A DNA stretch of 62,715 nucleotides, filler included, from Nemertoderma westbladi (lineage: Eukaryota; Animalia; Xenacoelomorpha), in the NCBI GenBank assembly GCA_032718475.1. It is 3 parts of 3 records of this genome, joined end to end, with 100 filler letters (N's around TTAATTAATTAA, not from the genome) between each part and the next. Parts side by side here need not be neighbours in the genome. Positions count along the whole stretch, not along the records: positions 27,298 to 51,639 come from JAUCBJ010004889.1; 2 more parts are not named here. One strand, 5' to 3'. How positions within the stretch are numbered: the stretch's first letter is position 1; each line of letters begins with the position of its first letter. Below the pieces are notes generated by a model that saw nothing but the letters and a program-made list of their open reading frames with translations, did no database searches and was not told where the DNA came from. The position numbers and the translations under genes are program-made. Shown here in pieces: positions 2,490-60,530 of this stretch.

Positions 2490-3480
2490 GTGCAGCGGGT
2501 GACGAAGTAAGCGAGCTTGATATACGGGCACCGCTGTTTGATTCAAGCGTTGCGTGTCTGCGTCTATATGTATCCAATGGTTGAAGGGAAGACAAATAAT
2601 AATTCACGCAATCTTTTATGAAATTACACAAAACTTGGTAAACATATCGTCTATAAAAAGTTTGAAATATAATTTACTTGGGGGACTCAGCAGTTCTCCA
2701 GTTTACTACTAGAGGGCGACTAGGCAATTGTTGAAATATTTGTGGGGCGAGCAACGAAACTAAGCGACCTTAGAATATGTGTACCACTACTATCTCAATC
2801 GGTGTGTCTGTTGATCTGTCGCATCCAATATGTAAACGTTAATAACTCGGCTAATCCTCTTTGAAATCTAACCAAACTTGGTACACAAGTTGTTGGGCAA
2901 AAGTTTATAAATTTTCCAATTATATTTTTCGGGGGGCCTTCAGGACGAGCGCAACGAGGCAAAGTAGGGGAGGAGTATTGTGTTGGCTATACTAGTAAAC
3001 AACCTGGACTAGCATATTGGATGATACTGTATAATGTAATATTGATCAATACCGGTGGTGTAATATTTTATGCTAGGGACCGGTAGTTATTTATATTTTG
3101 GTGTCTAGATGTACATGACGAGTGCAACGAGGGTTGTAATGAAGACGAGTCTCTGTTGACTAAACTCGCGTAATAACGACGTATTGTTTTGACTATACTC
3201 GTAACCATATGGTTTAGTATATTGGATGATTATAATGTAAATTTTTTTAGTACTGTGATAATGGAATGTTGTAAGGTATATATTTGGTGACCAGGTTGTA
3301 CAGGACGAACGCAATGAGTTTTGCAGTGGAAACGGGTATCGATCTACCATAAATCCACAGGTACTCCGTTACTCGCACAGTTTCGAGACTTTGCATAGTT
3401 ATAAAGGTCATCAGTTTGCGTTTAGGAAATTTTTTAAGGTAAAACAGGATGAGCAAAACGAGGCTATTGAAGGAGGCGAG
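2490..3480. repeat. Degenerate tandem duplications (~260-bp pair, then ~150-190-bp units), possibly Helitron/Helentron-type non-autonomous DNA
   Basis: ACGAA.TAAGCGA.CTT...CCAAT...AAACTTGGTA recurs at ~2500-2640 and ~2750-2885. A CAGGACGAGCGCAACGAGG-like motif recurs at ~2941, 3113, 3301 and 3444. The family assignment is inference. Confidence 0.45.
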
Positions 3481-6600: not shown

Positions 6601-6893
6601 GGCGCGGTTACATCGTCCTGTACAAAGGGCGCGGTTACATCGTCCTGTACGAAGGGCGCGGTTACATCGTCCTGTACGAAGGGCGCGGTTACATCGTCCT
6701 GTACGAAGGGCGTGGTTACATCGTCCTGTACGAAGGGCGCGGTTACATCGTCCTGTACGAAGGGCGCGGTTACATCGTCCTGTACAAAGGGCGCGGTTAC
6801 ATCGTCCTGTACGAAGGGCGCGGTTACATCGTCCTGTACGAAGGGCGCGGTTACATCGTCCTGTACGAAGGGCGCGGTTACATCGTCCTGTAC
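3652..6893. repeat. 27-bp minisatellite GGTTACATCGTCCTGTACGAAGGGCGC, ~120 copies
   Basis: Tandem array; the 9-aa periodicity in all ORF frames confirms a 27-bp unit. Occasional 24- and 26-bp units. Confidence 0.97.
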
Positions 6894-10843: not shown

Positions 10844-12394
10844 GACAATAAGAATAACGTAACTCTATTGATAACCGGTGGTCCGCGAAACCAACACGCC
10901 AAATATTCTAATAATTCAAAGATTCCAAATAAAATATAAAGTATATAATATTGTTATGATCTCCTCAATTCGATAAAATAACTAAAACATTAACAAAACT
11001 ATTTCTGTATTTTAAATTACTGAATTACAGTACAGCAGTAACGTACCGGTACGGTACTGGATGTAAAATTTAATAAAGTAGGCGATTTTCTCCCGTGATA
11101 TTCTGTCCGCCTTAATTCCGTAATTAATTTTGTGCTTCTTTCTAATAGTCCTACATTCTTTTCTTATCTGCTTATTGAATAAACTATTTTATCTGTACAA
11201 TATTCTGCTGTGGCTGTACTGCTGCTGTGCTGTACTCAGATACCTGGATAATTGCAGAATTGTTAATATGATGCTATTTTTTGGATAATCATTCTACATG
11301 TTCTAACAGGCATACAACAACAACAGTACAAATTATGATTCAGTGGATCTTTCTTAGCGAACCCGAACCCAATGCCGTACAACACTCTGCCGTCAGATCT
11401 ATCTTTCGCACTTTCTACCACTAAATTTAGTGACGGAAGGAGAGACTTACCGTATTAACAGTGTACCGGTATTTATTAGGTGTAATGTAATAAACTGATG
11501 AATACAGAAATAGTGAGCGAACTTTCATACACTACACTGTCATCGTCATCTATAAATACAGAAATATAAAGTGGGAAAAAGATAATGTAACTTTATTAGA
11601 TAAATAAAATAATTTGGAAAGAATTCCTTCTTGTCGCAATTTATGATTTATATTTGACAGAATTTAAACTAAACTAGGCAATATACAGACAGGCCTATAC
11701 TGCTATAGGCCTACTATAATTATTGTCTGTTTGAGAACGGAATATATGGATATAATAATACCTGAAGCAAATTAATTTGTATAACTACTGAGACCGTAAG
11801 CCGAAGTAGTTATACATGATTTATTTGCTGAAGGTATTTAAGTATTAATAATTAGTGAAATATTATGAGAATATAGGCCTACTAGCTAGTAATCGATTGT
11901 AGGCCTACTAAAAAACTATATATTTAAAGCGCTGCTACGCAAGTTGCAACTGCGATGGAAATAGCTAAACTTGGAACTTAATCTTCACGTTTTGTACTGA
12001 TCTGCTGATTTTTGGAAAGAATAAACCTACCGTACAGCCGTACCGCATACCGGTAACGAATTTCAATTTCACTCCATAATATTTTCCTTACTGCCTTATG
12101 CCATTTTCTTTTTAGTCTGTGTGGATTTGCGCAATAATAAAGTACGTCACACTTGTTTTTAAACAACTGATCAGCATTTTTGACAAACATACGATTAGGA
12201 CTGTTTTACTATAATCTAATACGTAACTCAAATACTCTCACTGTATATTAATAATACAGTAATTATAATACTGTAATAGAACAGCAAACCTTACCGTATT
12301 ATTTTATTTATTCTTATAATAATGCCCAATGCCATAACTACTGAACTAGGCTTAGTAGGCTTCCCTCTAAATATAGAAATAAATTATTAATATT

Positions 12395-16356: not shown

Positions 16357-19300
16357 TTTGTAGGTCCTTTGGGTTGTAGGTGCTGTGGGTTGTAGGTGCT
16401 GTAGGTTGTAGGTGCTGTGTGTTGTAGGTGCTGTGGGTTGTAGGTACTGTGGGTTGTAGGTACTGTGGGTTGTAGATCCTATGGGTTGTAGGTACTGTGG
16501 GTTTAGGTGCTGTGGGTTGTAGGTGCTGTGGGTTGTAGGTGCTGTGGGTTGTATGTGCAGTGGGTTGTAGGTGCTGTGGGTTGTAGGTGCTGAGGGTTGT
16601 AGGTGCTGTAGGTTGTAGGTGCTGTGTGTTGTAGGTGCTGTGGGTTGTAGGTACTGTGGGTTGTAGGTACTGTGGGTTGTAGATCCTATGGGTTGTAGGT
16701 ACTGTGGGTTTAGGTGCTGTGGGTTGTAGGTGCTGTGGGTTGTAGGTGCTGTGGGTAGTAGGTCTTGTGGGTTGTAGGTGCTGTGGGTTGTAGATGCTGT
16801 GGGTTGTAGGTGCTGTGGGTTGTAGGTCCTATGGGTTGTAGGTGCTGTGGGTTGTAGGTGCTGTGGGTTGTAGGTGCTGTTGGTTGTAGGTCCTATGGGT
16901 TGTAGGTCCTATGGGTTGTAGGTACTGTGGGTTGTAGGTGCTCTGGGTTGTAGGTGCTGTGGGTTGAAGGTGCTGTGGGTTGTAGGTGCTGTGGGTTGTA
17001 GGTGCTGTGGGTTGTATGTGCAGTGGGTTGTAGGTGCTGTGGGTTGTAGGTGCTGTGGTTTGTAGGTGCTGTGGGTTGTAGGTGCTGTGGGTTGTAGGTG
17101 CTGTGGGTTGTAGGTGCTGTGGGTTGTAGGTGCTGTGGGTTGTAGGTCCTATGGGTTGTAGGTGCTGTGGGTTGTAGGTGCTGTGGGTTGTAGGTGCTGT
17201 GGGTTGTAGGTCCTATGGGTTGTAGGTCCTATGGGTTGTAGGTGCTATGGGTTGTAGGTGCTGTGGGTTGTAGGTGCTGTGGGTTGTAGGTACTGTGGGT
17301 TGTAGGTACTGTGGGTTGTAGGTGCTGTGGGTTGTAGGTGCTGTGGGTTGTAGGTCCTATGGGTTGTAGGTGCCGTGGGTTGTAGGTGCTGTGGGTTGTA
17401 GATGCTGTGGGTTGTAGGTGCTGTGGGTTGTAGGTGCTGTGGGTTGTAGGTCCTATGGGTTGTAGGTGCCGTGGGTTGTAGGTGCTGTGGGTTGTAGATG
17501 CTGTGGGTTGTAGGTGCTGTGGGTTGTAGGTGCTGTGGGTTGTAGGTACTGTGGGTTGTAGGTGCTGTGGGTTGTACGTGATGTGGGTTGTAGGTGCTGT
17601 GGGTTGTAGGTACTGTGGGTTGTAGGTGCTGAGGGTTGTAGGTGCTGTGGGTTGTAGGTGCTGTGGGTTGTAGGTGCTGTGGGTTGTAGGTACTGTGGGT
17701 TGTAGGTGCTGAGGGTTGTAGGTGCTGTGGGTTGTAGGTGCTGTGGGTTGTAGGTGCTGTGGGTTGTAGGTCCTATGGGTTGTAGGTGCTGTGGGTTGTA
17801 GGTGCTGTGGGTTGTAGGTCCTATGGGTTGTAGGTGCTGTGGGTTGTAGGTGCTATGGGTTGTAGGTACTGTGGGTTGTAGGTGCTGTGGGTTGTAGGTG
17901 CTGTGGGTTGTAGGTGCTGTGGGTTGTAGGTGCTGTGGGTTGTAGGTCCTATGGGTTGTAGGTGCTGTGGGTTGTAGGTCCTATGGGTTGTAGGTGCTGT
18001 GGGTTGTAGGTGCTGTGGGTTGTAGGTCCTATGGGTTGTAGGTGCTGTGGGTTGTAGGTGCTGTGGGTTGTAGGTCCTATGGGTTGTAGGTGCTGTGGGT
18101 TGTAGGTGCTGTGGGTTGTAGGTCCTATGGGTTGTAGGTGCTGTGGGTTGTAGGTGCTGTGGGTTGTAGGTCCTATGGGTTGTAGGTGCTGTGGGTTGTA
18201 GGTGCTGTGGGTTGTAGGTCCTATGGGTTGTAGGTGCTGTGGGTTGTAGGTGCTGTGGGTTGTAGGTACTGTGGGTTGTAGGTGCTGTGGGTTGTAGGTG
18301 CTGTGGGTTGTAGGTGCTGTGGGTTGTAGGTCCTATGGGTTGTAGGTGCTGTGGGTTGTAGGTCCTATGGGTTGTAGGTGCTGTGGGTTGTAGGTGCTGT
18401 GGGTTGTAGGTGCTGTGGGTTGTAGGTCCTATGGGTTGTAGGTGCTGTGGGTTGTAGGTCCTATGGGTTGTAGGTGCTGTGGGTTGTAGGTGCTGTGGGT
18501 TGTAGGTGCTGTGGGTTGTAGGTCCTATGGGTTGTAGGTGCTGTGGGTTGTAGGTGCTGTGGGTTGTAGGTCCTATGGGTTGTAGGTGCTGTGGGTTGTA
18601 GGTGCTGTGGGTTGTAGGTCCTATGGGTTGTAGGTGCTGCGGGTTGTAGGTGCTGTGGGTTGTAGGTCCTATGGGTTGTAGGTGCTGTGGGTTGTAGGTG
18701 CTGTGGGTTGTAGGTCCTATGGGTTGTAGGTGCTGTGGGTTGTAGGTGCTGTGGGTTGTAGGTACTGTGGGTTGTAGGTGCTGTGGGTTGTAGGTGCTGT
18801 GGGTTGTAGGTCCTATGGGTTGTAGGTCCTATGGGTTGTAGGTGCTGTGGGTTGTAGGTCCTATGGGTTGTAGGTGCTGTGGGTTGTAGGTGCTGTGGGT
18901 TGTAGGTGCTGTGGGTTGTAGGTCCTATGGGTTGTAGGTGCTGTGGGTTGTAGGTGCTGTGGGTTGTAGGTCCTATGGGTTGTAGGTGCTGTGGGTTGTA
19001 GGTGCTGTGGGTTGTAGGTCCTATGGGTTGTAGGTGCTGTGGGTTGTAGGTGCTGTGGGTTGTAGGTCCTATGGGTTGTAGGTGCTGTGGGTTGTAGGTG
19101 CTGTGGGTTGTAGGTGCTGTGGGTTGTAGGTCCTATGGGTTGTAGGTGCTGTGGGTTGTAGGTGCTGTGGGTTGTAGGTCCTATGGGTTGTAGGTGCTGT
19201 AGGTTGTAGGTGCTGTGTGTTGTAGGTGCTGTGGGTTGTAGGTACTGTGGGTTGTAGGTACTGTGGGTTGTAGATCCTATGGGTTGTAGGTACTGTGGGT

Positions 19301-21605
19301 TTAGGTGCTGTGGGTTGTAGGTGCTGTGGGTTGTAGGTGCTGTGGGTAGTAGGTCTTGTGGGTTGTAGGTGCTGTGGGTTGTAGATGCTGTGGGTTGTAG
19401 GTGCTGTGGGTTGTAGGTGCTGTGGGTTGTAGGTCCTATGGGTTGTAGGTGCTGTGGGTTGTAGGTGCTGTGGGTTGTAGGTCCTATGGGTTGTAGGTGC
19501 TGTGGGTTGTAGGTGCTGTGGGTTGTAGGTGCTGTGGGTTGTAGGTGCTGTGGGTTGTAGGTCCTATGGGTTGTAGGTCCTATGGGTTGTAGGTGCTGTG
19601 GGTTATAGCAGTAGGTGCTGTGGGTTGAAGGTGCTGTGGGTTGTAGGTGCTGTGGGTTGTAGGTGCTGTGGGTTGTATGTGCTGTGGGTTGTAGGTGCTG
19701 TGGGTTGTAGGTACTGTGGGTTGTAGGTCCTATGGGTTGTAGGTGCTGTGGGTTGTAGGTGCTGTGGGTTGTAGGTGATGTGGGTTGTAGGTCCTATGGG
19801 TTGTAGGTCCTATGGGTTGTAGGTGCTGTGGGTTGTAGGTGCTGTGGGTTGTAGGTGCTGTGGGTTGTAGGTGCTGTGGGTTGTAGGTGCTGTGGGTTGT
19901 ATGTGCTGTGGGTTGTAGGTACTGTGGGTTGTAGATGCTGTGGGTTGTAGATGCTGTGGGTTGTAGGTGCTGTGGGTTGTAGGTGCTGTGGGTTGTAGGT
20001 GCACTATGGGTTGTAGGTCCTATGGGTTGTAGGTGCTGTGGGTTGTAGATGCTGTGGGTTGTAGGTGCTGTGGGTTGTAGGTGCTGTGGGTTGTAGGTGC
20101 TGTGGGTTGTAGGTGCTGTGGGTTGTAGGTGCTGTGGGTTGTAGGTGCTGTGGGTTGTAGGTCCTATGGGTTGTAGGTGCTGTGGGTTGTAGGTGCAGTG
20201 GGTTGTAGGTGCTGTGGGTTGTAGGTCCTATGGGTTGTAGGTCCTATGGGTTGTAGGTGCTGTGGGTTGTAGGTGTTGTGGGTTGTAGGTGCTGTGGGTT
20301 GTAGGTGCTGTGGGTTGTAGGTGCTGTGGGTTGTAGGTACTGTGGGTTGTAGGTACTGTGGGTTGTAGGTACTGTGGGTTGTAGGTGCTGTGGGTTGTAG
20401 GTACTGTGGGTTGTAGGTACTGTGGGTTGTAGGTACTGTGGGTTGTAGGTACTGTGGGTTGTAGGTGCTGTGGGTTGTAGGTACTGCGGGTTTTAGGTGC
20501 TGTGGGTTGTAGGTGCTGTGTGTTGTAGGTGCTGTGGGTTGTAGGTGCTGTGGGTTGTAGGTGCTGTGGGTTGTAGGTCCTATGGGTTGTAGGTGTCGTG
20601 GGTTGTAGGTGTTGTGGGTTGTAGATGCTGTGGGTTGTAGGTGCTGTGGGTTGTAGGTGCTGTGGGTTGTAGGTCCTATGGGTTGTAGGTGCCGTGGGTT
20701 GTAGGTGCTGTGGGTTGTAGATGCTGTGGGTTGTAGGTGCTGTGGGTTGTAGGTGCTGTGGGTTGTAGGTGCTGTGGGTTGTAGGTGCTGTGGGTTGTAG
20801 GTGCTATGGGTTGTAGGTGCTGTGGGTTGTAGGTGCTGTGGGTTGTAGGTACTGTGGGTTGTAGGTGCTGTGGGTTGTAGATGCTGTGGGTTGTAGGTGC
20901 TGTGGGTTGTAGGTGCTGTGGGTTGTAGGTGCTGTGGGTTGTAGGTGCTGTGGGTTGTAGGTGCTGTGGGTTGTAGGTGCTGTGGGTTGTAGGTCCTATG
21001 GGTTGTAGGTGCCGTGGGTTGTAGGTGCTGTGGGTTGTAGATGCTGTGGGTTGTAGGTGCTGTGGGTTGTAGGTGCTGTGGGTTGTAGGTGCTGTGGGTT
21101 GTAGGTACTGTGGGTTGTAGGTGCTGTGGGTTGTAGATGCTGTGGGTTGTAGGTGCTGTGGGTTGTAGGTGCTGTGGGTTGTAGGTGCTGTGGGTTGTAG
21201 GTGCTGTGGGTTGTAGGTGCTGTGGGTTGTAGGTGCTGTGGGTTGTAGGTGCTATGGGTTGTAGGTGCTGTGGGTTGTAGGTGCTGTGGGTTGTAGGTAC
21301 TGTGGGTTGTAGGTGCTGTGGGTTGTAGGTCCTATGGGTTGTAGGTGCCGTGGGTTGTAGGTGCTGTGGGTTGTAGATGCTGTGGGTTGTAGGTGCTGTG
21401 GGTTGTAGGTGCTGTAGGTTGTAGGTGCTATGGGTTGTAGGTGCTGTGGGTTGTAGGTGCTGTGGGTTGTAGGTCCTATGGGTTGTAGGTACTGTGGGTT
21501 GTAGGTGCTGTGTGTTATAGGTGCTGTGGGTTGTAGGTACTGTGGGTTGTAGGTGCTGTGGGTTGTAGGTGCTGTGTGTTGTGTGTTGTAGGTGCTGTGG
21601 GTTGT
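16357..21605. repeat. 16-bp G/T-rich satellite GGTTGTAGGTGCTGTG (variant GGTTGTAGGTCCTATG), ~325 copies
   Basis: Continuous 5.2-kb tandem array; the 16-aa period (3 x 16 bp) in the minus-strand ORF confirms the unit length. Confidence 0.97.
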
Positions 21606-34938: not shown

Positions 34939-36732
34939 CGATCAATCTGCTTACTGGGCGGAAAAGCCAACCAACCACCAAGGAAGGTTAAGGCTGAATC
35001 ACCAGCCGATCGCCTCAATGGTTGGAAAGCCCACTTTGAGAAGCTCCTCAATAATGACAGGGTATTGCCTGATAACTTTATAGAAGTAAAAGTGTCTGAG
35101 TTTGTACTCCCAGATATTCCCATTGGCGATATCTCCTTTGCAGAAGTGAAGGCTGCTGCAAAGAGCATTAAGACCAATCGTGCCAGTGGAGTAGATGGTG
35201 TTCCCCCTGAGGTCTTTAAAATAGCTGAGTGTTTAAAGCTCATCTATCCCATCATAGTAGACATGTACCGAACAACAAGAGTCCCACAAGAAATGAAAAC
35301 AAATAAGTTGGTGCCAGTTCCCAAGAAGGGCAACCTAACACTCTATGGTTCTTTTCGGGGAATCTCATTGATCTCGATTGCTGCAAAGCTATACAATAGG
35401 ATTCTATTAAATCGCATCAGGGATCCCATTGAGAGACTGCTCCGTGGAAATCAGAATGGGTTCCGTAAAGGTCGTGGGACCATGGAGCCCATTTTGGCAC
35501 TTAGAAGGATAATTGAAGAGTTATCAAAAAAGAAAGACAGGCATCTGGCTGTTATCTTTGTTGACTTCTTCAAGGCCTTTGATTCAGTCTCTCGTTCATG
35601 TATGTTCAGCATACTTTCATTATATGGGATTCCTGATGAAATTATTGCAGCAATCAGATCAGATCAGTATATGATGGTTCGACAACATTTGTGTCTACTG
35701 TTGACGGTGACACAGAACCATTTGAAGTGTTATGGGGCATCCTCCAAGGAGACACACTTGCACCATTCTTGTTCATTATTGTGGTTGACTATGTTCTACG
35801 CATGTCCTTAGATCATTATAATGATGATGGGGTGATGATAACTCCACCTACTGGCTCCAGAAGTCGAGGAAATCCTGCCAAGTACCTAACTGATCTAGAC
35901 TTTGCTGTTGACTTAGGAGTACTCTCAGAATCATTAGAGGGAGCCCAACGGCTCCTCAGCTCATTAGAACATGCTGCTTCTAGTGTTGGTCTTTTTATTA
36001 ACTCCAGAAAGACCAAAATTCTGACAGTTAACTTTGAAAGTCCTCAGCAAGTCTCTGATCGGATGAGCATAAGCTCAAAGAATGGTATGCTTGAGCATGT
36101 GGACGACTTCTGTTACCTGGGATCATGGATCCGGAAGTCAGGTGAGGACCTTCGAATACGTAAGGGAAAGGCATGGGCAGCCTTGAATAGGCTTTCCAGG
36201 ATTTGGAAGTTACCGATAATTAAACGGAAACTTAAGGTCCGATTATTTAGAGCAGCAGTAGTTCCAGTACTCCTCTACGGGAGTCCATGCTGGGCTCTAA
36301 CTGCTGAGGACACCAAATCTCTGGATGGCACATTCACAAGAATGCTACGCCGGGTTCATTGTGTCAAGTACAATGCACACATCTCCAACCAGACACTATA
36401 TAACATTGGTGGTGTCTCATTGGTTCCCCCAAGCTTGACACTAGAACAAAATCGCCTCCGCTTTGCAGGACATTGCTTTCGCCGTGAGGACCAGCCAGTG
36501 CATAATCTTGTACTTTGGCAGCCTCATGGAGTGAATAAGCATGGTGGACAGCCCATGACTTTGTTGAGACGCATCTTAAAGGACACTGGCCTTGAAGATG
36601 CGGATGATCTAGCAAATGTCATGGGTGATAGGGAGTTGTGGCGGTGCAATTTTGTCGATAAGCCGGCACAGCATTCTTAAAAATGCAGCTGCAATGCAGC
36701 ATGCCGATCCTAGTAGTAGTAGTAGTAGTAGT
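34939..36732 (+). mobile_element. RTE-clade LINE copy B, 5'-truncated, with (TAG)n tail and 12-bp TSD AGGACTGACTAT
   Basis: RT ORFs 35065-35811 and 35691-36680, frameshifted by an AGATC duplication near 35660. The catalytic FADD reads FAVD. TSD at 34927-34938 and 36733-36744. Confidence 0.93.
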
Positions 36733-37159: not shown

Positions 37160-38125
37160 ATTGGATTCACTTTGGAAAAATCACTTCAGCAACTTGCTTG
37201 GGCAGCCACCAAACATTGAGGTCAGTTCTACAAGGAAAATATATGACAAGACACTACCTATAGAAACAGGGGACTTCACACCTGCCGAACTCCAAAGAAG
37301 CATTAAATGCATGTCCAATAATAAAGCGAGTGGATTAGATGAAATCCCAGTGGAGGTATGGAAAACCGGAGTGCTAAACAGACCATTATTGAATGTTTGC
37401 AACCGGATGTTAAAAGGGGAAAAGCCACCACCAATGTGGACTAAAGGTCAACTAAAGCCTCTCCCCAAGAAAGGAGACCTTGGCATACCAACAAACTATC
37501 GTGGGATCTATCTGCTTGTGGTAGCTACCAAAATATACAATAAAATGATTCTATTTAGGCCTCACATAGAGAAACTACTGCGAAGAGCCAAAACGGATTT
37601 CGACCAAGTAGATGAACAATAGCTCAGATACTTGCACTACTGGATACTGATTAAAGGAATTAAGTCAAAGAATCTCCCCGCAGTCATGAATTTTGTGGAC
37701 TTCAAGAAGGCATTCGACTCCGTCCATAGAGGTAAAATGCATGAAATCCTAAGAGCTTATGGAATACCAGAAGTAATTGTTGCTGGCATTGGATTGTTAT
37801 GTTGTGACACAGAAGCGCAGGTACTCTCACCAGAAGGTGAAACTGAGTTTTCTCAATCCTGGCTGGCATACTGCAAGGTGACACATTAGCACCATTACTA
37901 TTTGTAATTGTGCTGGATTACGCAATAAGGACAGCCACAAAGGGTGAAGATCTGGGATTCACACTTCAAGAACGCAAAGTAGTAGATATCCGGCAACTAC
38001 AGTCACAGACACCGACTTTGCGGATGACATCGCCCTGCTCTCTAATACGCTAGCAGATGCACAGCTTCTACTAAATAAAGTGGAGAGGGCTGCTAAAGAG
38101 GTTGGATTGCATATAAACGCATATA
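37160..38125 (+). mobile_element. Older RTE-clade LINE RT fragment (second family), degenerate
   Basis: KASGLDEIP, PKKGDL..PTNYRGI, FVDFKKAFDSV, LQGDTLAP and DFADDIAL across frameshifts. Confidence 0.85.
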
Positions 38126-38639
38126 AGCGAGCTAGTTACACCGCTCTAGGCCCCCACCTAGAGAACAAATCACCACTATGGTTACAACTACATTCGCAAT
38201 ACACATCTTTGTAAGGCTGATATGGCCATATAGTTAACGTCGATTAAATACAAATAGGCTGCCATTGATACATTCGACCCTGTGGTCAGCATGAACATTC
38301 CGCAGGGTGACGCTGGACTTTGCATACATCACAAAGGAAATTAATCCTGATGGTTTAGGTGAGTTGCATCATTTCAATTCACATAGAATTCCATAACTCG
38401 TCGTAATTTATGATTATCATTTGTCAACTTTATAGGATGGGTATTCTACTTTATATGATTGACTCCATTACTTGATATCGCTAGCATCAGTATCGAACTT
38501 GAGGTTGAGAAGTTTGTTGTCCATCGTGATTCCAACACCTCCATTAGCTGCCTCAAGCAGACACAAAGCCTGTAAGGGCCCATTGCTGTTCATATCATTA
38601 CGGTTCGAGTGAGTCCATCTTTGCTCAGGAATATTTTGG

Positions 38640-41600
38640 TTACTCGTGCTGTGGACCAATGCCCGCGTCTCTCAGTTCTTCATTGACCAGGACCATTTCT
38701 CCTACCACGATGTTGCGATGGGTATGGTTCCACTTCAGTCTGGTTCGCAGGATGATGAGGTATTTGTGGGACCATATTCACCACCAGTGGGCTGCCAGGG
38801 CTTGTCACTTCTTCCAGTCAGTGTGGCAGTTAATCTCGCCGGGATCGGGAAACATCCCTTTGGGGAGGATATCGGTTTTGGGTTGGCCCAGTAGATGGTT
38901 TGGTGTCAGAGGTTTGAGATCGGTGGGGTTGTCTTGGATTGGTACGATGTGGCTATTGTTGAGCATCGCCGTAATTTCACAGAACATTGTGCGCAATGCA
39001 TCGTGTGTTACCCTTGTGTCTCCTAACTATGGACCTATTTACTAGGTTGATAAGCTTCTCCCAGATTCCGCTTGTGTGTAGGGCCTTTGGGGTTTGGAAA
39101 TTCCATTCTATCTGATGCTCGTTCGGAGAACCATTCAGCCAGGGTTTCCCGCAACTGCCTTTCCCCTCCAATGAAGTTTGTGCCGTTATCCGAGTACATG
39201 TGGCAACATGATCCGTTTCCGACAATAAACTGTTGTAGTGCATTTAGAAACGCATGTTGGGATAGATTTATTACGATGTCCAGGTAGACCGCTCGAGATC
39301 TCAGGCATGTAAAAATATTCCCCCCAGTATTTGATATTGGAACACCTCTCGATTATGGTGAATGGTCCAAAGCAATCCAATCCTGCGATATAGAATGGGG
39401 GCAAGCAGGGAGCGAGGAAGTATAATCCAATGCTGGATGTTGGTGATGATACAATTTTGTCCAGCAGGTAGGTTCGTCTAGTGGCATTGTCTTACCAGGA
39501 GTTTAGCGAGATGGAATCCTCCATGGATGATCGCAGGATACTTGATGTCACACTCCGTTGGTGCGTTTGCCATGTTGGTGTCCATCCAGATCAAGTTATC
39601 CTTTCCCATGACCGGTTTGAGTTGATAAATAGGGCTGTCAGATTTAAGGGTACAACTCTTTTCAAACTGTTCCCACTCGTCCAGGAAGTATTATCTTTGT
39701 GTATAACAGACTATATATCATTCGGCGAGTTGGTTTTCCTTGATGCTATACTTCACGATTGGGAGGTGTAATTTCCATCTCATGAAGTTTTGGAGTACCA
39801 GAATATAGTCGGTGAGCTGCTTCATATAGGAATCCATAGAGATTGATTAAGCAGTGGCTTGCGGTATCATTAGGGATTGAATATGCTCCAATTGTCATAT
39901 AGAGCAAGTTTGAATCCTTTTCAGGCTTGCACAAGCAACTATAGACCGATGGATCGGACATTATATAGAGCAAGTTCGAATCCTTTTCAGGCTCGCACAA
40001 GCAACTATAGATGTCCCTTATCTTGGCACCCTTAACTTTCCAGAGTTCTTTATCGTCTTCCTATTACTTCCCGCTATCCCATGGTAGGTCAAACTTCATG
40101 CTCCAGGTGAGCTGGGGTTGTCTCAAGAACTCTGGGCCTTCCAACCACATTTGGCTCATCTATTATCGCTGCATATCGCACAGCATGTCTGCTTGTTGCA
40201 GTCTCTTATGTAATGTCCAATGCTCAGGCATTTCAAGCAACCCTGATGTTTCATTATTGCCTCGAAACGGGGAACCAAATCCGCGTATTTGAAACATTGG
40301 CAAAGTTCTACGGCGTGTTTCTCCCCACAGAAGATGCAAATGAGTTGGTTGTGGGTTACGTCCCGCTTGGGAACCCAAATAGTGAAGAAGCTGGCCCATT
40401 CTTCAGCCATCTCGATTTCGTTCTCCTCATCTTCATCATCATCGGAGCAATATATAGCCATAGTGCAGACGGGTTCGTGGAACCTAGGTTTGGGTATTGG
40501 AATCCGGGATCTGGTCGCCGTCCCCCACCCCCCCCCCCCCATCCTGCTTCACCAGACTCTGTTTGGAAAATATAGAGTCATTCATCGCTTCTGAGACGTC
40601 GTCGAGGAATCTAGACATTTCCAGATATGTAGGATCGTATTCTGGATGACGTTGGCGTAGATCGACGCATTTGTAGGCCTATTTGGTCTGCAACCATCCG
40701 GGAAATTTTCGAGAAATCTGTTGGATGTTTAATATGTTGTTGACTTTATCCTACTTCTGTAAAGGTTTTAAACTATAATCTGCCTCCTACATTGAGTCCA
40801 AAAACTTTTGAATATTTTGGGGGGTCTCCCAATGAACCTGCATCCTGTACCAGTTTCTCTAGAGTTTTATTAATGATGGTCCCGGTATTTCCATATCGCC
40901 GGTTTAAAATGTCCCATGCATCTTGATATGCTTCATCATCGCCCCCCCCCCCCCCCCCCCCTGAAGCAACAGATTAATCTCTTTGGTTTATCTCCGAGAT
41001 ATTGAGGTAGATAAACGAGCGGTTTTCCAGCACTCGAATAATACTTAGATCCATCGATGTGGGTTTGCCGGAGGTGTTGAGAGGGCCGGGTGCACTGCCG
41101 ACATAGGATGGGTCCAACAGGATTTTGGCGTGTCGGGGATTATTCGAACGTGGGTGTCAGGGGTTGAGTTCTGTGGACCAGGCGGAACTCCCTCCTGCCG
41201 AATCCTTTTCAGGCTCATCCACTACAATTCACCTGTTAATCAGACCCACTTCATCTTCTGAGGACCTCTCACAACCATATTGGGCATTCCGGCCAGGAAG
41301 GTGCATAGCAATCCCCTCCGAATCATTTTCAGGCTCATATCAGGTACTATGACTTCCATGGTCCGCTTCTGATATGAACTTTTGTGCTGCGGGAGAGAGT
41401 TTGTGGGATTTAAGGATAGGTTGGAGGAGAGCGGGTTCTTCAAAAGGAAGTGTTTTCTCCAACTCAGGAATGGGGATGGGTTCATACCCCTGCTCGATCC
41501 CTCTTTCCCTATCCTCCTCAATTAGGAGATCTCGCTCGAGTAAAGCAGTTTCATACTTGGCTAATTTGGCATCATCCATACTTTTCTTTTGGATCATTAT

Positions 41601-42300
41601 ATTTTCTGCCTTTATATCTCGAGATCGTTGTTCCGCATCCCATTGTTGTATCCTTTTTATCTTATTGAGTTCTCTCTTATGTTTATTGTTCTCTAACTGA
41701 GTTTCCATTTTGCGTTTTTTGATTTCGAGTTGAGTTTCTAGTTCACGTTTTTCGATTTTGAGTTGGGTTTCTCATTCACGATTTTCGATTTCGAGTTGAG
41801 TTTCTGCGTCTCGTTCCTCGATGTCGACTGCCTGATACTGATTGATCATTTCTTGCACCAATTTATTTCTATCCAAATCCAGCTGCGCTTATTCATTCTC
41901 CAATCGCGGTTTGACTGTGCCAGCCCGTTGCTCCCGCATCTGGTCTTGGAGTCTGTTTCTCTGAGAGTGGGTGGAGGTCGTGCTCCAGAACCTAGACTCC
42001 GATTGTCTAGTAGTCCTCCTTGTAGCCATTCGTCTCGTAACAACTGTGGATACAGACTCTGCTTAACTCTCGAGTCTATGGTGTGACTGTTCCCCATACC
42101 TCCTGACGAGTTGGATGATCCGGGAGTGTTGATGCTGGAACTAGTCAAGGTGTCGCATGTGTTCCTCAAGTTTGGATTTATGTTTGCTCTAGGATTTTCT
42201 CACCAGTTTCCTTCGTGTTTACGTGCCAGTGTAGCACGGAAGTAGAATTTGGTGTCCAAAATTTGTCGCTCGGCGAAGCTCCGTCGGGAAGTTGCCATGG
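38640..42300 (-). mobile_element. Degenerate BEL/Pao LTR retrotransposon 1 (gag with Zn knuckles joined to post-RNaseH region and integrase; PR/RT absent)
   Basis: Gag CIFCGEKH...C and CLKCLSIGH...C; WLEGPEFL; integrase GLDCFGP, WNFQTP..HTSGIWE and PLTPNHLL. Many frameshifts. LTRs were not confidently delimited. Confidence 0.85.
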
Positions 42301-42769
42301 TTGGAATTCCGCAGGTTTATCTGAATTTTGCGCTGGCAAAAATTCACCGCTATATTTGGAATTTTGTTGCCGTTATTTCATAACACCGGAGTAAGTTTGA
42401 AAGGGTTGTGGATCTCCGCAATACTAGTCACTGGATATTGGATCAGGGAGTGATTGGTAATGCAGTCGAAAAGGAAAAAGAACAAGTTGGGTTGAATCAT
42501 CAATTTTATTCTAATTGATCAAGTTATCTTTGCACTGTTACACACTGATTCCAAATATATGGGACTCCCCAATGCGGCAATAGGCCAATATAAATGAAAT
42601 ATACACAATAATAATAATCAAATGAGTTATCAAAATAAGCCTACATTTACGAGTTATTTGGTCAGTCAGAATTATTTATTTAGATTTTAACCCCCCCAGA
42701 ACTACGTTTGATACACGTCTGTCTGGTCTGTCTATATCCATCATAAGTAAAATCCATCGGTATTCTGTC

Positions 42770-43385
42770 AGGTCAATCCTTTTCTTGCTTTGCCTACCCC
42801 GAATCCTTTCAGGCTCGTGATAACACTGACCTCAGCTGTCCATTGGTGTCTATGAGTCTGTGAGAGAATGCAGCAGTGATACTGCATATCACTCCATCTA
42901 GTCGGTAAAGCATCGACCCTTCAGTGCACCGCTCACCCCTTGCCATCCCTTACAGGTTGAGTCCTCAGGCAAGTCAAGTGGCTTAACTTCGGGGTTTGTT
43001 GGGACCTTATGACACCTAGTGTCACCAGCGTTCGAATCCTTTTCAGGCTCGCACAAAGCTGACCAGCGCCACTCAGGCAGTCCAAGTCCCTCAGTAAGGT
43101 GTTGCATACCCCTCACCCCACGCCGCCATCCCTTTAGGGGGTGGGTCCAAAGGCAAGTCAAGAGGCTTAGCTCGGGGTCGGCTGTTCATGTCCCTTTCTC
43201 CCGCGCTCTGCCTAGTTTCACCCTAGGTCGAATCCTTTTCAGGCTCACCCCAGGCTGACCAGCTCGGCTTGGGGTCCCCACCTTTCTTTGTGACACCAAG
43301 TGTCACCCTAACCCAAATCCTTTGCGGCTCGTGCTAGGCTGACCAGCACAACTCAGGCATTTGTCCCTTGGCTACCAGGAATTCT
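42770..43385. repeat. Structured repeat region upstream of BEL element 1 (probable 5' UTR/LTR) with reiterated GAATCCTTTTCAGGCTC
   Basis: Motif at ~42800, 43033, 43229 and a degenerate copy at ~43315, plus GACAC(C)NAGTGTCAC palindromes and GCTGACCAGC repeats. Confidence 0.6.
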
Positions 43386-43619
43386 ACCTGGAGCCAGATT
43401 GTACTTGAATTCTTAGAATTTGGGCCCCAATAAAAGCACTGAGAGTGGCGATTTTGTATTTAGTCGTCAATATAAATCGCCGTAACTATGTTATTTTTAA
43501 CTTTTAATCGTTCCGGTTTTTTGCACATGGTATCCGGGACTTTTTGGAATATTCGTTCATTATCGTTTATAATTTTTATATATGCCCGGCACCTGATTTG
43601 AAAATAACGCAAACAACCA

Positions 43620-48673: not shown

Positions 48674-49729
48674 ACTACTACTAGGATCGGCATGCTGCAT
48701 TGCAGCTGCATTTTTAAGAATGCTGTGCCGGCTTGTCAACAAAATTGCACCGCCACAACTCCCTATCACCCATGACATTTGCTAGATCATCCACATCTTT
48801 AAGGCCAGTGTCCTTTAAGATGCGTCTCAAGAAAGTCATGGGCTGTCCACCATGCTTATTCACTCCATGAGGCTGCCAAAGTACAAGATTATGCACTGGC
48901 TGGTCCTCACGGCGAAAGCAATGTCTTGCAAAGCGGAGGCGATTTTGTTCTAGTGTCAAGCTTGGGGGAACCAATGAGACACCTCCAATGTTATATAGTG
49001 TCTGGTTGGAGATGTGTGCATTGTACTTGACACAATGTACCCGGCGTAGCATTCTTGTGAATGTGCCATCCAGAGATTTGGTGTCCTCAGCAGTTAGAGC
49101 CCAGCATGGACTCCCGTAGAGGAGTACTGGAACTACTGCTTCTCTAAATAATCGGACCTTAAGTTTCCGATTAATTCTAGGTGACTTCCAAATCCTGGAA
49201 AGCCTATTCAAGGCTGCCCATGCCTTTCCCTTACGTATTCGAAGGTCCTCACCTGACTTCCGGATCCATGATCCCAGGTAACAGAAGTCGTCCACATGCT
49301 CAAGCATACCATCCTTTGAGCTTATGCTCATCCGATCAGAGACTTGCTGACTGTCAGAATGTCAGTTGTTAACTGTCAGAATTTTGGTCTTTCTGGAGTT
49401 AATAAAAAGACCAACACTAGAAGCAGCATGTTCTAATGAGCTGAGGAGCCGCTGGGCTCCCTCTAATGATTCTGAGAGTACTCCTAAGTCATCAGCAAAG
49501 TCTAGATCAGTTAGGTACTTGGCAGGATTTCCTCGACTTCTGGAGCCAGTAGGTGGAGTTATCATCACCCCATCATCATTATGATGATCTAAGGACAAGC
49601 GTAGAACATAGTCAACCACAATAATGAACAAGAATGGTGCAAGTGTGTCTCCTTGGAGGACGCCCCATAACACTTCAAATGGTTCTGTGTCACCGTCAAC
49701 AGTAGACACAAATGTTGTCGAACCATCGT
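48674..49729 (-). mobile_element. RTE LINE copy C (3' part with short TAG tail)
   Basis: ORFs 49362-49799 and 48714-49331 are nearly identical to copy B; the tail reads ACTACTACTAGGATC on +. Confidence 0.92.
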
Positions 49730-54058: not shown

Positions 54059-57000
54059 CTCCCCCCCATGCTATCTTCCCGGTCGGAGGATAGCATCAAC
54101 TACAAGTGCGCTTCAATTCCGCTGGAACCCGATCTACTATCGGGTGTGGGGTGGAGTTCTTTTCTCGGAGTCGGCTTTCCAGGCCGCTCCCTCTGGGTAT
54201 GATATTACTACCCCTTCTTGGTGCAACCGCAACCTATGTTGCACCAAGACATCTGACGTCTCTGTTTGAGACAATTGTGGACTCTTCACACAATTTTCAA
54301 AAACTATCACTCTGAATTCACTCTCGGACCCTTCTGTCCCTTACTCTCTCTATCTCACTGCTCGCTCCCCACACTTGAATTGCACTCCTCTCACTTTCTC
54401 TCATCGTGTCAACACCTCCTCTCCATTCTTCCCCCCGATTCCCCATTCTCGTTTTCATTCCTTATACACTTATTGGGCCCCACACATGTGCGCATCATGT
54501 TCGTGGGAGCCGTCTAAGTCCCGTCCTGTCGCCCTAGTCAATTAGTCCCCAGTCCCAGTAGCTAATTGGAAAAAGGTTGTACTTGACTACGGTGCATATT
54601 ATACCTCCCTTCCTTCTTTCGTGCCAATATCCACTAACTTTATTTTAGATTTTGTTTTATCTGTATTTTCCCCCTATTCTGTGCTATCATCGTACTTACC
54701 TTCTACTTGTTTCTTACTACGTACTTACTACTTACTACTATGGTATGTTGTATCCATATACCATATTCTCTACTCTATTACTGCTAACTCTACTAACTCA
54801 ACTAACTCCACTAACTCTACTAACTCTACTAACTCTACTAATTCCAACGGTACTATGTACCCTCCTACTACCCTCGTGGTATGTCTCTATACCACACTCC
54901 CTATACTTCTAACTCTGATGGTACTATGTACCCTATTACTCCCGTGGTATGTCTCTATACCACACTCCCTATACTTCTAACTCTCCTCTTACTCTTGCTA
55001 ACTTCTATTAACTTTCTAACTACTACTAACTTCTGCTAACTTTCTAACTACTACTAACTTCTGCTAACTTTCTAACTACTACTAACTTCTGCTAACTTTC
55101 TAACTATTACTAACTTCTGCTAACTTTCTAACTATTACTTAGTGCTACGTACTATCTACTACTATCACTTTCTGAGTTTCTGCTTTCTCACTTTATTTTA
55201 TTATTTTTATTTTTTTTTATATTTTGTGTGGGAAGGGCGTCTCGCCCTCAATCCCACCCCCTCAGTCCAACACTTGGACGACTAAACTCTATGCTGCCCC
55301 TTCTAATAGGCAGCACTTCCCTACAGCCCTCCTGTAGGTCTTTCTACCTTTCGCTCCTATCTTACCCACTATCCGCACTTCCACCGATCGGACTCTTCCG
55401 TCCTCGTCGGGGTAAGTGTCTAGTACTCTCGCTAGCCTCCACTGATTGTTGATGATTGTGTCGTCAGTGACGATCACTAAGTCACCTTTCTTTAACTCTC
55501 TAGTGGTGTTTCTCCACTTGCTCCTCCTGTGTAGCGTGGGTAGGTATTCCTCGACCCACCTCCTCCAATACTCGGCGCTTATCGCCTTGGCAACTTTCCA
55601 ACTCTGTCGGGAGTGTATGTCATCTGGGTCTACACCCCGCATGTCGATGGTCGCCAGCCTTTCCATCAGAAAGTGGCTCGGCTCGGTGTCGTCTAGTGAT
55701 TCCGGGTCGTCATTCTGTATAGCGGTCTGCTATTAATGATTCCCTCACACTTAGCTAGCACCGTTCTTAGAATATCCTCTGTCACCATGTGGGTGTTCAT
55801 CAACTTCGTCATCAGACGTTTGGAACTACCCACAAGCCTCTCGACGCATCCTAAAGTATGTGGCGCATACGGCATCCTCCTTTCCCACTTCACCTGTCGT
55901 CTCCTCATGGCTGCCCTGACCTCTTCTCCTTCTAGGATGTCCAAGGCCTCCGCCAACTCGTTATCCGCTCCCACAAAGTTGGTTCCATTGTCGGAATAGA
56001 TCACTGCGATTGTTCCACCTTTGCAGTCTCTAAATTTTTCTAAGGCATTGATGAATGCCGATGCCGTGGCATCTTGGGCGAGTTCTATTCCTACCGCCCT
56101 CGTGTTGTTACATACGAAGATGCTGCCGTATCGTTTCTCCGTGTGTCGCATCACCTTGATCTTAATCGGCCCGAACATGTCTACACTGCAGTGCGTGACC
56201 AGCAGGGTCGTGCTGTCTCACCCTACTGGCCGGTAATGGCGCCATCTCCTGTACGGCCCTATCCTTTCTTGTCCATCGGCAGGTCTGGCACTGCCCCCTA
56301 CCGCCTTTACCTTCTTCCTTAGCTGTGCGATCCAGAAGGTCCTCCGTATCTCTGTGAGGGTCTGGTTGGTGCCTCCGTGCAATATCGACTTGTGGGAGTC
56401 CCAAATGATCTGGTGGACTATCGGCGATCTGTTGGGGATGATAATGGGTTTTGGTGGGATGATAAGGCTGTTGTTATTCAGCACTATGGAATTCATCACC
56501 AGAATCCCGTCATCGTTGAGTTGTGGTGACAGCGTGATGAGCTCGCTGTCCCGACGAAGATGTTCGATCGATCCAGTTCGTCGGCGTAGTTCCTTCTCTG
56601 TTCGTATCGTATCACGGCCTTGGCCGCTCCATCCAGATCGATGCTTGGTTTCCTCTTGGCGTCCTTGCCAACTCCCTTGAGGAAATCCCTGTAGGCCCTC
56701 CAGTACGCTACCAACTTCTTGGTCTTGTACCAGCTGGAGCTGTAGCTGAGTAGCCTATCCGTCGGGTTGTCACATGGTTCTTCTGATTTCGGTTGCACCT
56801 CCCTGACCTCCCTCACCATCTGATTATTTATCTGAATCTTCTCCCTCTTCCCCTGGTGCTATCTCCTCTGAGCCCGGGTCCACCTTCTTCATTGGTGGCC
56901 TGGCCGATCTATCGTTCAGGAAGTGTGGCCCGTGCTGCCACAACACTTCCTTCTTTGAGAAAGTGTGGCGTGCCACGCCCCTCAATAACAAGTCTGCTGT

Positions 57001-60000
57001 GTTCTCGTCCGTAGGGCAGTAGTGCCACCTTTCCAAGTCTGTCGTCGCCCTTATTTCGTCCACCCTATTCGCGACGAATATAGGGTTATCTCGTCTTCAC
57101 GTTGTGCAGCCACCCGAGCACTACCGTGGAGTCTGTCCAGTAGTGTGTTTCCACTATGTTGGGAATATTGTCCATCAAGTAGGCTGTGGCCCTTACACAC
57201 CATGCACACCGATGTCTGTGACATCCTAAATGGAATTTTGGTTTTGATTGGGCCGCTTAGTGTCCATCTGAATGGTGTGAGAATTGCCATCGGATCGCGC
57301 TGTCTGTCTTCCCCGAAGATCGTCTGTACTCTTTCGTGAGCCGTCGGGCAGTCCATTCCCACTATGATGGATACCTTCCTGACGTCCACCTCCGGTATCA
57401 AGAAATCGATGTTGTCCAGGAATCTGTATTGCTCGACCTCGATGTTGGTTGGTCGCCTGGCGTTTATGTTGATCAATTCTATCACCTGGATGGGGTCGAT
57501 GGTCGCCCCATAGTCACATCCCGGTGCTATCGCTGATATCTGGCACCTTCCCATCCTCATCTCCAGGACCTCATCTTTGCTGGAGATGGTAGTTACCGCC
57601 ATCCAACTTGGCCTCGTCCTTAACCCTATCTCCTCGGCCACCCAATTCTCCACCAATGTGAAGGCTGCTCCGCTGTCGACCAGCATCAAGGTAGTAACTG
57701 ATTGACCGCCCTCTCCTATTACCCTCACCGGTACCACCCCCAGTAGCACCGTTCCCCTTTTCTTCGCCCCTATGGTGCTTGTCGCCATTGTTTGACCTTT
57801 GCCTTGATCGAATCTTACTGGTGTCTCCTTACACTCTTCAACCTTGTGTCCGCCTACCACACATCAGTGAAAAATTCCATTCTTATCCGCATAGGCTTTC
57901 CGATCTTGTTCGGGTAATGCCTGCCAATGCTTACAGTCCATGGTCTTATGGGTTCTCTCTTTATGCAATTGACATTTGTATTCTTGGTTGTAACGTTCCC
58001 TATATAGCTCTACACGTATTGCGCGTAGGTTCACATCTACCGGTTTAGTGTTTTATTTGGGTTTGGCCTACTGGGTGTGTTGGGATTATATTTGTTCGTA
58101 TTGTTATTTTGTCCCTGTTTGTGCCACAGTCTGGCCCCACTCCCAGCTATCTGTTGACTTGCAGTCCCCTGTGTCGCCGCGTATGGTAGGGATTGTCTTA
58201 ATTTTGGCAAGGCATTTGCCGCATTGTGCTCTGGTTTCAGCCTGTTGTATTCGGCCCTCAGCGCCTTCCCCAGACTATCCTCGCTGTAGACTGGGTCCAT
58301 GATTAACTCTGCTTCGTAGTTGAGGAAGTTCGACATTTCCTCTAGGCCCGGTTCCGCACCTTTCTTCTCCCGGGTGGAGAAGGCGATCTTCCTCCATTTG
58401 TTGCGTAGCCATATTGGCAGTGCCTGCGCTATCGTGGTGATGTTATTAGATGCGTTGAGTTCGTATGGCGCGTCTAGCGTCTTCAGCACGATTAAGGCCT
58501 TCTCAACCTTATTCGCGAAGGTCTTTATACTAACAGGGTTATCCTGTAGGCCACCCGATTTTATCCCCCTTAAGGTCTGCCGGATGATCTTGGCAGGGTG
58601 TCCGTATTCCCTGTCTAGGGCCCGCCATGCAGTCATGAAGCCACCCTCGATGCCCTGATACTGCCTCACGATGTCGTACGCTGGGCCTCCTGTGTATACC
58701 TGTAGATATTTTAGGCACTCCGCCTGCGTCAGGTTCTTAGTTTAATATCTCGTTGCTGTACATGCGTCGGAATTGCAGGTATTCTTCCAGTCTGCTTCCG
58801 TCGAATTTAAATGGCTCTACTGGTGGTAGCTCGATCCTGGTCTTGAGCGCATCGATAAGTGTTGCCATTCCTATTGCCTGTGCTTCCGATGGGTTCGAGG
58901 GATGCTGTATACAGATTCTCCCGTTGGGTGTGGTCTGCCCGTCGGGCCTGTTGACTTTCTTTGAGTCGGATATACCATTGGCGGTAACGGCCCCCTCCAT
59001 ATCTCAGTGTCGCAAGATCTGTTCTCCTCCAGGGGGTTCGATGTTCGTATTCCCGCTTGAGTGTATTGTTGATATTGTAATGGGGGAATGTCACCCTGCC
59101 CCCCCCCCCCCCCCCACCGGTGGTATATTTGCTACTGGGGTTGATGTTAATATATTGGGGCCCATAGACCTATCTGCAATAACTCTCCCCTCCCCTGGAT
59201 ATATGTTATGTCCCTGCATATTATAGTCATACTGCTGTGCCGGTACTGGTATAGGCCTATCCACTTCTTGCCTACCTACCGGTATATACGCTGCGACTTC
59301 CGGATCTAATCCCGTCGTTTGTGCTACCCTATTGCCTACACTATCTCTCCCAGCATGGCCTATAGTATGTGCAGTAAGGCCTACAGTATGTCCTGCAGTC
59401 TGCATGTGTCCTTCCGGACCGAAGTTTAACCTTCTCGAATAATCCGAGAAGTCCTCCACGTGACAACCGTACTCTCGATCGGCAGCTATATCCCGTCGGG
59501 AAGTCTCTCTTCGATCCACTCTCCTGTTCTCGTCCTCGTACCGGTACATCCTGTACCCCTCTCCCGGCGTATGATATATCTCGCCAGGCTGCGTCTCTCC
59601 GGGGCGACGGCAATCTCCCGGAGTTTGACCCCACTGACTTTCCAACTCCATCTCTACTACCGATGGTTCGCTATCCGTTCTCGCTCTCCAGTCGCTCGTA
59701 GCAACGCTTCTTCTATTCTCTTCGCTTCTTCTCTCTTCAGTATAGCATCCCCGCTCATGAGATCTCTCTTCGACCTCCCGGTTAAACTCCACTGTTCTTC
59801 TTCTGTCTTCCGACTAGGCTCGACGTCTCATCGCTCGCCCGCTCACGACGCCAACCTCTCTCTCTCTACCAGGTTGGACGCTCCTGGGGATATTCGCAAT
59901 CCCCCTACTATTCTCCGTCGTCGGGTGCCGCGGTTCATCTGACATGGTTCGCCCCGCGCATTATCCGTCGATGCTTGTGGGGCATTCTCTGCCCCCCCCC

Positions 60001-60344
60001 CCTCTCGCCACTAATCTCTCGTGGTGAGGTGCCGTAGCCCCCCCCCCCCCCCCCCCTTCCCGTTCGCCACCTCTTACTTCACTATCTCCCACTTCGCTTC
60101 TACACCCCTCTCTAGTCGACGCACTGTCTCTACTGCGGCTGGGTCTACTCACCCCCACCTCTCCCTGTGCAACTGCGTGGCCTGGCAGGCTTCCGTCGGG
60201 TTGACTCACCCCCGCTACTCCCTGCATAACTACGTGGCCTTGCAGGCTCCCGTCGGGGTGACTCACCCCCGCTACTCCCTGCATACTAACTACGTGGCCT
60301 TCCAGGCTCTCGCTGGTTGGACCACCTACGCTTGTTGCGTTCAT
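54059..60344 (-). mobile_element. BEL/Pao LTR retrotransposon 2 internal region (gag, protease, RNaseH C-terminus, integrase; RT deleted)
   Basis: Gag PFKFDG...EYLQF and AWRALDREYG; protease LLGVVPV...LVDSGAAFTLV; WHYCPTDENTADL, LWQHGPHFL; integrase FGPI, YSDNGTNFVGA, GCVERLV, YWRRWVEEYLPTL...GDLV...WRLARV...DGRVRSVEV. Frameshifted. Confidence 0.92.
54775..55140. repeat. Short tandem repeats in the 3' UTR of BEL element 2 (9-bp ACTAACTCT, ~69-bp duplication, 26-bp ACTACTAACTTCTGCTAACTTTCTA)
   Basis: Directly visible. Confidence 0.85.
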
Positions 60345-60530
60345 ATTAATAGCACCATTATCAACAACATTATTGCTTAAATTATTTAAATTTGATGAAT
60401 TATTTCACTATAAGGTAGCATTTGTAGTTTAACTTTAACGTAAAAACTTTTGAAAATCCGACGTATTTTGATTAAATTACAGTAATGTAATATGCCTATT
60501 CATATTTGTACACATAAAACCCTTAGGTAC

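Follow-up and report, generated by a model that had tools for sequence, protein, structure and literature searches.

A repeated, probably structured RNA motif in a decayed BEL/Pao retrotransposon of Nemertoderma westbladi, tentatively a Gag-binding site

INTRODUCTION

Single-stranded RNA viruses and hepatitis B virus contain dispersed packaging stem-loops, and binding of the coat protein to them has been shown (available portion of PMC6281560). The packaging regions described for retroviruses (psi) and for Ty1 consist of structured sense RNA near the 5' end of an element whose Gag protein has zinc knuckles (available portion of PMC8396678). For BEL/Pao elements, a group of retrotransposons with long terminal repeats (LTRs), no packaging or Gag-binding RNA signal was found among titles and abstract beginnings, with subscription journals and Repbase lying outside the scope of the search. 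Here, we analyzed a 62,715-nucleotide (nt) stretch of DNA from Nemertoderma westbladi (assembly GCA_032718475.1), referred to as the window. It contains a decayed BEL/Pao element on the minus strand, in which a preliminary description had reported a repeated hairpin motif. The element resembles the psi and Ty1 systems in having predicted structured sense RNA toward its 5' end and a Gag with zinc knuckles. However, psi is located near the 5' terminus, whereas the copies in the window are not confined to a 5' leader: some likely lie within the LTR, and others are found 1-2.5 kb further on, in gag and pol. Coordinates refer to the window, and all features of this element are on the minus strand.

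RESULTS

The motif is repeated on the sense strand of one element

A fuzzy search of the whole window detected eight copies of a motif with a 19-nt core, all at the places reported earlier and all on the sense (minus) strand of the element. Beyond these, no copy with up to four edits was found in the window, either on the opposite strand or elsewhere, in agreement with the proposed confinement to the sense strand. First-order simulations (n = 20) gave no match with up to three edits. An ungapped search yielded 6 matches versus 0.10 expected, a number reached in 0 of 100 shuffles. When a covariance model of the eight copies was run on the window with filters off, no ninth copy was found; the next-best match scored 9 bits, versus 34-57 bits for the copies.

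Two copies are located in gag (41319-41337 and 41199-41217) and one in the pol linker between the end of RNase H and the integrase (39977-39995), confirming the positions inside gag and upstream of the integrase. Four copies that had been placed upstream of gag (43314-43331, 43229-43247, 43033-43051, and 42800-42817) most likely lie inside the 5' LTR instead. The remaining copy (39911-39929) is a decayed duplicate of the pol copy. The two represent a single 66-nt tandem duplication and are 96% alike over 49 nt, with both changes in the duplicate at CpG positions. Analyses of independent copies were therefore based on seven copies, with 39911 dropped. Copies 43033, 43229, and 43314 also share flanks (15-23 of 30 positions identical, versus 4-12 of 30 for every other pair), and we regard them as old tandem units in the likely 5' LTR. 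Thus, the flanks are unrelated, as had been stated for most copies, around 42800 and the copies in gag and pol, but not around these three or the duplicated pair. The pol copy and the LTR copy at 43033 have 27 nt in common without a difference.

The core is predicted to fold, and its flanks covary

The minimum-energy fold of the sense core is a 7-bp stem with a bulged A on the 3' side and a GAAA loop (−5.4 kcal/mol). This is the hairpin of the preliminary description, although not every copy conforms to it: 42800, in which the loop is short by one base, and 43314 have 5-nt loops, and the stem of 41319 has one mismatch. The antisense core reaches only −1.7 kcal/mol, and DNA parameters also give only −1.7 for the core. 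Most variation in the core is at CpG positions. In three LTR copies and the pol copy, the sense strand folds far better than shuffled sequences (z −2.7 to −5.0). The pol copy forms part of a long predicted hairpin (39955-40017; z −5.03). For the LTR copies, extended hairpins were predicted at 43302-43343 (43314; z −4.46 sense versus −0.44 antisense), 43217-43259 (43229; −4.35 versus −0.59), and 43021-43063 (43033; −2.67 versus −0.87).

The pair directly below the core is G.A or A.G in all seven independent copies (three and four copies), and the next pair outward is Watson-Crick in all seven, with three types represented (U-A, G-C, and C-G). Both features together occurred in 4 of 5040 flank permutations. 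The 5' and 3' flanks of a copy pair better with each other than with swapped ones (283, 72, 38, and 5 of 5040 permutations at 8, 12, 16, and 22 nt). Across the whole 17-pair structure, 80.6% of cells are paired (2 of 500 shuffles), versus 27-48% in slid controls, and the covariation score is 0.273 (7 of 500 shuffles). Variation that preserves the structure is therefore seen in the flanks, by both the permutation and the covariation tests, but not in the core.

The motif was not found outside its family

The motif is absent both from 20 BEL loci of other animals, where the best covariance-model score was 15 bits, and from the window's other BEL element (55290-60400). This answers the earlier question about abundance outside the family at a coarse level only, since all the compared elements are distant relatives. 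The 20 loci (L014-L033) lie in prokaryote genome bins and are most likely contaminating animal host DNA. No comparably dispersed 14-mer was found inside the element in the 16 of these 20 loci that were scanned (the four shortest were left out). Rfam 15 gave no covariance-model match over any copy at E values up to 10. Viral contigs contained no exact match and, in related-locus scans, nothing related. Metagenome contigs contained 12 single exact matches, none with a second copy or BEL similarity, and these were read as chance. Altogether, the motif is a genuine signal that is specific to its family and probably structured.

Several other identities were considered and rejected. A Pol III B box is present in only two to three copies and on the antisense strand. 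On the antisense strand, the top of the motif resembles the histone stem-loop, but the base is unpaired, and Rfam gave no match; nor was there an Rfam match to hammerhead, twister, or group I cores. A tRNA-Phe anticodon mimic would require a 7-nt-loop register at +2.9 versus −5.4 kcal/mol. Likeness to lambda boxB and group II domain V was also set aside. The motif does not mark a deletion breakpoint, the junction being about 160 nt off.

Relatives of the element in the same species

Contigs at 80% likeness were mapped onto positions 42760-43400. They came from three DNA runs, which represent two samples, the best of them possibly the source of the window. Contigs of diverged relatives concentrate on the motif, with depths of 890, 1256, and 423 at 43024-43045 versus 58, 158, and 68 at 43090-43111. 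None of the 40 listed of 171 substitution rows falls inside the cores at 43033 and 43229. Where the window copies 42800 and 43314 deviate, relatives carry the common 19-nt form, at 42800 in a high-depth contig, while some keep the 43314 variant. Among the substitution rows listed, differences in the flanks at 43251 and 43217 either preserve a pair or create one; those at 43029 and 43055, which are unphased, would jointly swap one pair for another. Contig joints show that the LTR units are rearranged and vary in number among relatives.

Single contigs over 42795-42951 reached depths of 1237-2103 (X1) and 1793-1992 (X2), whereas pieces that match exactly and are unique had about 22-26 and 45-64, respectively; this LTR unit, motif included, is thus also part of a near-identical repeat of much greater abundance. 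At 41225-41426, a 333-nt X2 contig of depth 201 spans the 41319 copy two times, and therefore a relative has an extra gag-internal unit.

The host element is a decayed BEL/Pao retrotransposon

All 24 protein matches bear BEL/Pao domains (PF05380 in 24 of 24), with identities of at most 38%. The integrase and Gag are related to BEL/Pao polyproteins (PF05380, PF17921, PF18701, and PF03564), and gag, knuckles, and integrase map to the relatives in BEL/Pao order, which substantiates the original assignment. The N-terminal gag frame (40761-42029, starting at 42029) contains a coiled coil, an acidic linker with the two motif copies, and a DUF1759 piece (PF03564, E 0.007, below the cut-off). No relative turned up when the gag frame was used in protein searches. 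In the ESM Atlas, only scores of 0.8 or lower were obtained for an open reading frame (ORF) at 41340-41771 that overlies the coiled coil and may differ in frame from gag. The zinc-knuckle region (40156-40548), assigned by mapping to relatives, comprises two complete CCHC knuckles plus the beginning of a third (knuckles mapped to 40365-40174) and ends at a deletion. This deletion, at about 40155-40170, removes the protease, the reverse transcriptase (RT), and most of RNase H: the mapping jumps by about 800 residues between knuckles and integrase, from residue ~533 to ~1348 of a 1915-aa relative, in line with the RT loss noted before. The integrase region (38593-39830), recognized by protein matches, is frameshifted; in a tree of 43 rows, it was on a long branch and in no supported clade.

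The 3' end of the element (38118-38158) consists of a polypurine-tract-like stretch (38158-38141), similar to the tracts that precede the 3' LTR in BEL loci L027 and L029, and about 23 nt of 3' LTR from 38140. After this, an RTE-like long interspersed nuclear element (LINE) resumes. The BEL element is flanked by two copies of the 3' part of a LINE that are 98-99% identical and oppositely oriented (35673-36720, plus strand; 48674-49727, minus strand).

In all three runs, a 1972-nt contig matches 38293-40264 without any difference and spans the deletion. Its depth (26, 64, and 26), which is like that of other exact pieces but is no copy number, hints that the deleted form is a single locus. The suggestion that this RT-less copy could be mobilized in trans was not supported, given this depth, the short remnant of the 3' LTR, and 7 stops within the first 423 codons of the gag frame. 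The copy is thus unlikely to move, whether in cis or in trans.

Layout of the likely 5' LTR

The likely 5' LTR remnant (42365-43615) has a TATA-like box at 43582, an AATAAA at 42510, and an inferred BEL-type end at 42365. Its start lies outside the window, so that the TG..CA bounds are incomplete, and there is no second LTR for comparison. Two whole marine BEL elements with both LTRs, L027 and L029, have LTRs of 770 and about 1630 nt with tandem repeats. In both, the 5' LTR is followed by sequence complementary to the LTR just 5' of AATAAA, and there is no tRNA site. Because the layout of the window matches that of L027 and L029, and because the depth of related contigs rises over 42274-43575, several-fold from about 42274 upward, the four noncoding copies probably belong to the 5' LTR and lie downstream of its TATA-like box.

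In L027 (1381/1719, 1771-1785) and L029 (2095/3117, 3203-3217), 11 nt after the 5' LTR are complementary to a predicted exon-exon junction of an LTR intron just 5' of AATAAA, as the best of 4 donors × 19 or 56 acceptors. The window element has a contiguous 12-nt counterpart, since 42351-42362, directly past the inferred LTR end, is complementary to 42548-42559 within the LTR. A tRNA-type primer site was not found after the inferred LTR end. This complementarity suggests self-priming by spliced LTR RNA; no literature on such priming was found by title or abstract beginning. The accessible portions of PMC554778 and PMC3118150 do not mention primer sites or tRNA, and those of PMC3118150 do not mention hairpins or packaging either. 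The LTR of L029 (1745-3040) also contains several GC-rich hairpins made from one word pair, both tandem and dispersed, with loops unrelated to the motif in the window.

Other features of the window

The second BEL/Pao element (55290-60400, minus strand) is unrelated to the first and also has no RT core. On the sense strand of this element, CCCGACGG occurs six times (60257, 60200, 59500, 58946, 57348, and 56766), versus about 0.1 expected. An equally dispersed 8-mer arose in 1-3 of 100 simulations, and no clear covarying stem was seen. One further copy of CCCGACGG is present at 42288 in the first element. GACG loops are reminiscent of gammaretroviral hairpins. Elsewhere, an intron-free 521-aa ORF with two LIM domains and a homeodomain (9299-10864, minus strand) is flanked by long tandem arrays. 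Long minisatellite arrays were found at 839-2032, 3653-6893, and 16358-21582, with units of 17/34, 27, and 16 nt.

DISCUSSION

We tentatively propose that the family-specific RNA hairpin is a repeated binding (packaging) site for the element's own Gag, a possibility that we rate somewhat short of even. Gag would use the hairpin as a repeated landing site in selecting and packaging genomic RNA. In the predicted structure, a purine-purine pair underlies the tip (a 7-bp stem with a G.U pair, the 3' bulged A, and the GAAA loop) and is followed by a lower stem whose sequence is free. In the three related LTR units, six pair positions, a G.G mismatch, and four more pairs are predicted below the tip. 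The protein would read the invariant tip, while the lower stem would need only to pair. The four noncoding copies would be in the transcribed part of the LTR and would thus be present at both ends of the genomic RNA. New copies may have been seeded by short-patch copying (template switching), as suggested by the identity shared between the pol copy and LTR copy 43033, and would have persisted at sites where an acidic stretch of six residues does not disturb the protein. An element-encoded reader fits because the motif is restricted to the family, and Gag with its zinc knuckles is the obvious candidate.

A number of observations weigh against a packaging site of this kind. Folding is weak at 42800 (z −1.21) and at 41199 (z −0.45), and 41319 (z +0.78) does not fold in silico, so that the gag copies do not stand out from shuffled sequences. 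In a 200-nt context, the pair probability of the hairpin is 0.4 for 42800, 0.16 for 41199, and 0.0 for 41319. The z score of the 661-nt array is alike on both strands (−1.87 sense versus −1.91 on the other). No compensatory change was seen inside the core among the eight copies, and its C-to-U and G-to-A changes, at CpG positions, may be plain decay. The two covarying flank positions were picked after inspection, and three copies share ancestry; their permutation result is thus not a clean probability. The measures counting pairs changed on both sides (41 of 500 shuffles) and further pair types (228 of 500) were not significant, and related alignment rows can by themselves beat shuffles in such a covariation test. 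The contig differences are unphased, and 40 of the 171 substitution rows are listed. In addition, the psi of retroviruses is as a rule restricted to the vicinity of the 5' end, and Ty1 Gag shows little specificity in RNA binding (available portion of PMC8396678).

The same structural evidence (flank pairing, covariation, and folding of the sense strand) would apply equally if a host factor read the hairpin, acting in nuclear export of unspliced RNA, germ-line localization, or control of LTR splicing or 3'-end formation, with more copies raising avidity. Stems with purine-purine mismatches are a typical feature of export elements that proteins bind, for example the Rev response element of human immunodeficiency virus. 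Unspliced RNA must moreover be handled, because the LTRs of L027 and L029 have a predicted intron. A host signal might, however, be shared across families, whereas neither the 20 BEL loci nor the second BEL element in this genome has the motif, which also matches no Rfam family; we consider this alternative unlikely, yet a serious one. A site acting as DNA, namely an imperfect dyad that binds a dimeric transcription factor or an insulator protein, in an LTR enhancer array repeated internally, would account for a core that is invariant in sequence without compensation. Tandem arrays are common in LTRs, with other ones in L027, L029, and L025. But all eight copies are on a single strand, G.U pairs function on the sense strand only, and in the flanks, pairing is conserved rather than sequence, making a DNA site improbable. 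More improbable still is a peptide repeat, such as a cleavage or docking motif. It is true that the three independent coding copies (two in gag and one, with its duplicate, in pol) share one frame, EPE(K/N)DS (EPENDS at 41319, EPEKDS at 41199 and 39977), a result that the preliminary description would have taken to speak against an RNA signal. One of the other two frames has a stop, though, so that the chance of a common frame is 0.25. Four copies fall within no ORF of 120 aa, the peptide was found in 0 of 24 related polyproteins, and synonymous positions are fixed: the codons are the same in all coding copies except for one K-to-N change (chance about 0.003 per copy from the codon use of the element). 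Because the codons are fixed and four copies are noncoding, the constraint acts on nucleotides, and the earlier statement that this is not a peptide repeat still stands.

The motif could also be a functionless relic, in which a hairpin derived from a tRNA-Tyr primer site after a switch to self-priming multiplied through tandem duplications within the LTR and through template switches at the hairpin. A tRNA-Tyr primes a BEL/Pao element, Achilles (available portion of PMC4580426). The core in the window corresponds to the middle of the complement of the tRNA-Tyr 3' end with 5-6 nt, the loop, inserted (tRNA sequences from the available portions of PMC12268536 and PMC13537249), and the LTR units also hold the first block of this complement, upstream and colinear, as in the Achilles primer binding site. 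Pairing of the seven copies with a 20-nt tRNA-Tyr probe exceeds that with shuffled probes (2 of 500), and when non-overlapping windows are ranked by how well they pair with it, the four LTR copies come in at 2, 3, 4, and 8. The stretch shared by the pol copy and 43033 likewise points to copying. This alternative leaves unexplained why the core is invariant amid unrelated flanks and why paired changes occur beside the gag copies. Further, the tRNA stretch is nearly palindromic, so that one arm largely implies the other, and the tRNA-Tyr used for comparison is not the host's own. We therefore regard a mere relic as rather improbable. A working tRNA-Tyr site is unlikely because the net binding does not surpass that of other parts of the element: including opening of the hairpin, it is modeled at +1.4 to −6.1 kcal/mol, versus a median of −3.9 and a 5th percentile of −8.4 for other windows. 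Unlike the Achilles primer site, the motif is interrupted, is repeated, and does not follow the LTR end, where about 18 contiguous complementary nt would be expected directly after the 5' LTR. A scan for tRNA-Tyr-type primer motifs returned one phage locus, which has no tRNA at the match. As an origin rather than a present function, a tRNA-Tyr primer site is conceivable, if less than probable, and it is compatible with a Gag-binding packaging site.

Both ideas can be combined: the family might package its RNA through a multi-copy, high-fidelity Gag operator, built from a tRNA-Tyr primer site that was abandoned after the switch to self-priming and then spread through the LTR and coding linkers. 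The whole chain is doubtful. If true, it would be the first defined packaging code for BEL/Pao and would mean that a primer site had been reused as a capsid signal. Should a host factor be the partner instead, the hairpin would define a new export or localization element. A near-invariant 19-nt hairpin with natural stem variants is a suitable substrate for probing and binding tests.

Among known systems, the MS2 TR hairpin resembles the hairpin in the window in its short stem, single bulged A, and four-base loop. It differs in that its A is in a 5' bulge, its loop ends in pyrimidine-A, and it occurs once (available portion of PMC6281560), whereas here the bulge is on the opposite, 3' side and the GAAA loop has no pyrimidine; the likeness to this operator that was first drawn is therefore not retained. 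The dispersed packaging signals of RNA viruses are closer. Like them, the motif is found as several sense-strand copies of one common sequence-structure motif, in coding and noncoding parts, although two gag copies fold poorly in silico. The viral signals are short and degenerate, whereas the motif in the window is 19 nt long and near-invariant, belongs to an LTR retrotransposon, and is a putative protein-binding site (available portion of PMC6281560). The hairpin could thus show whether dispersed packaging signals, as described for RNA viruses, also operate in LTR retrotransposons.

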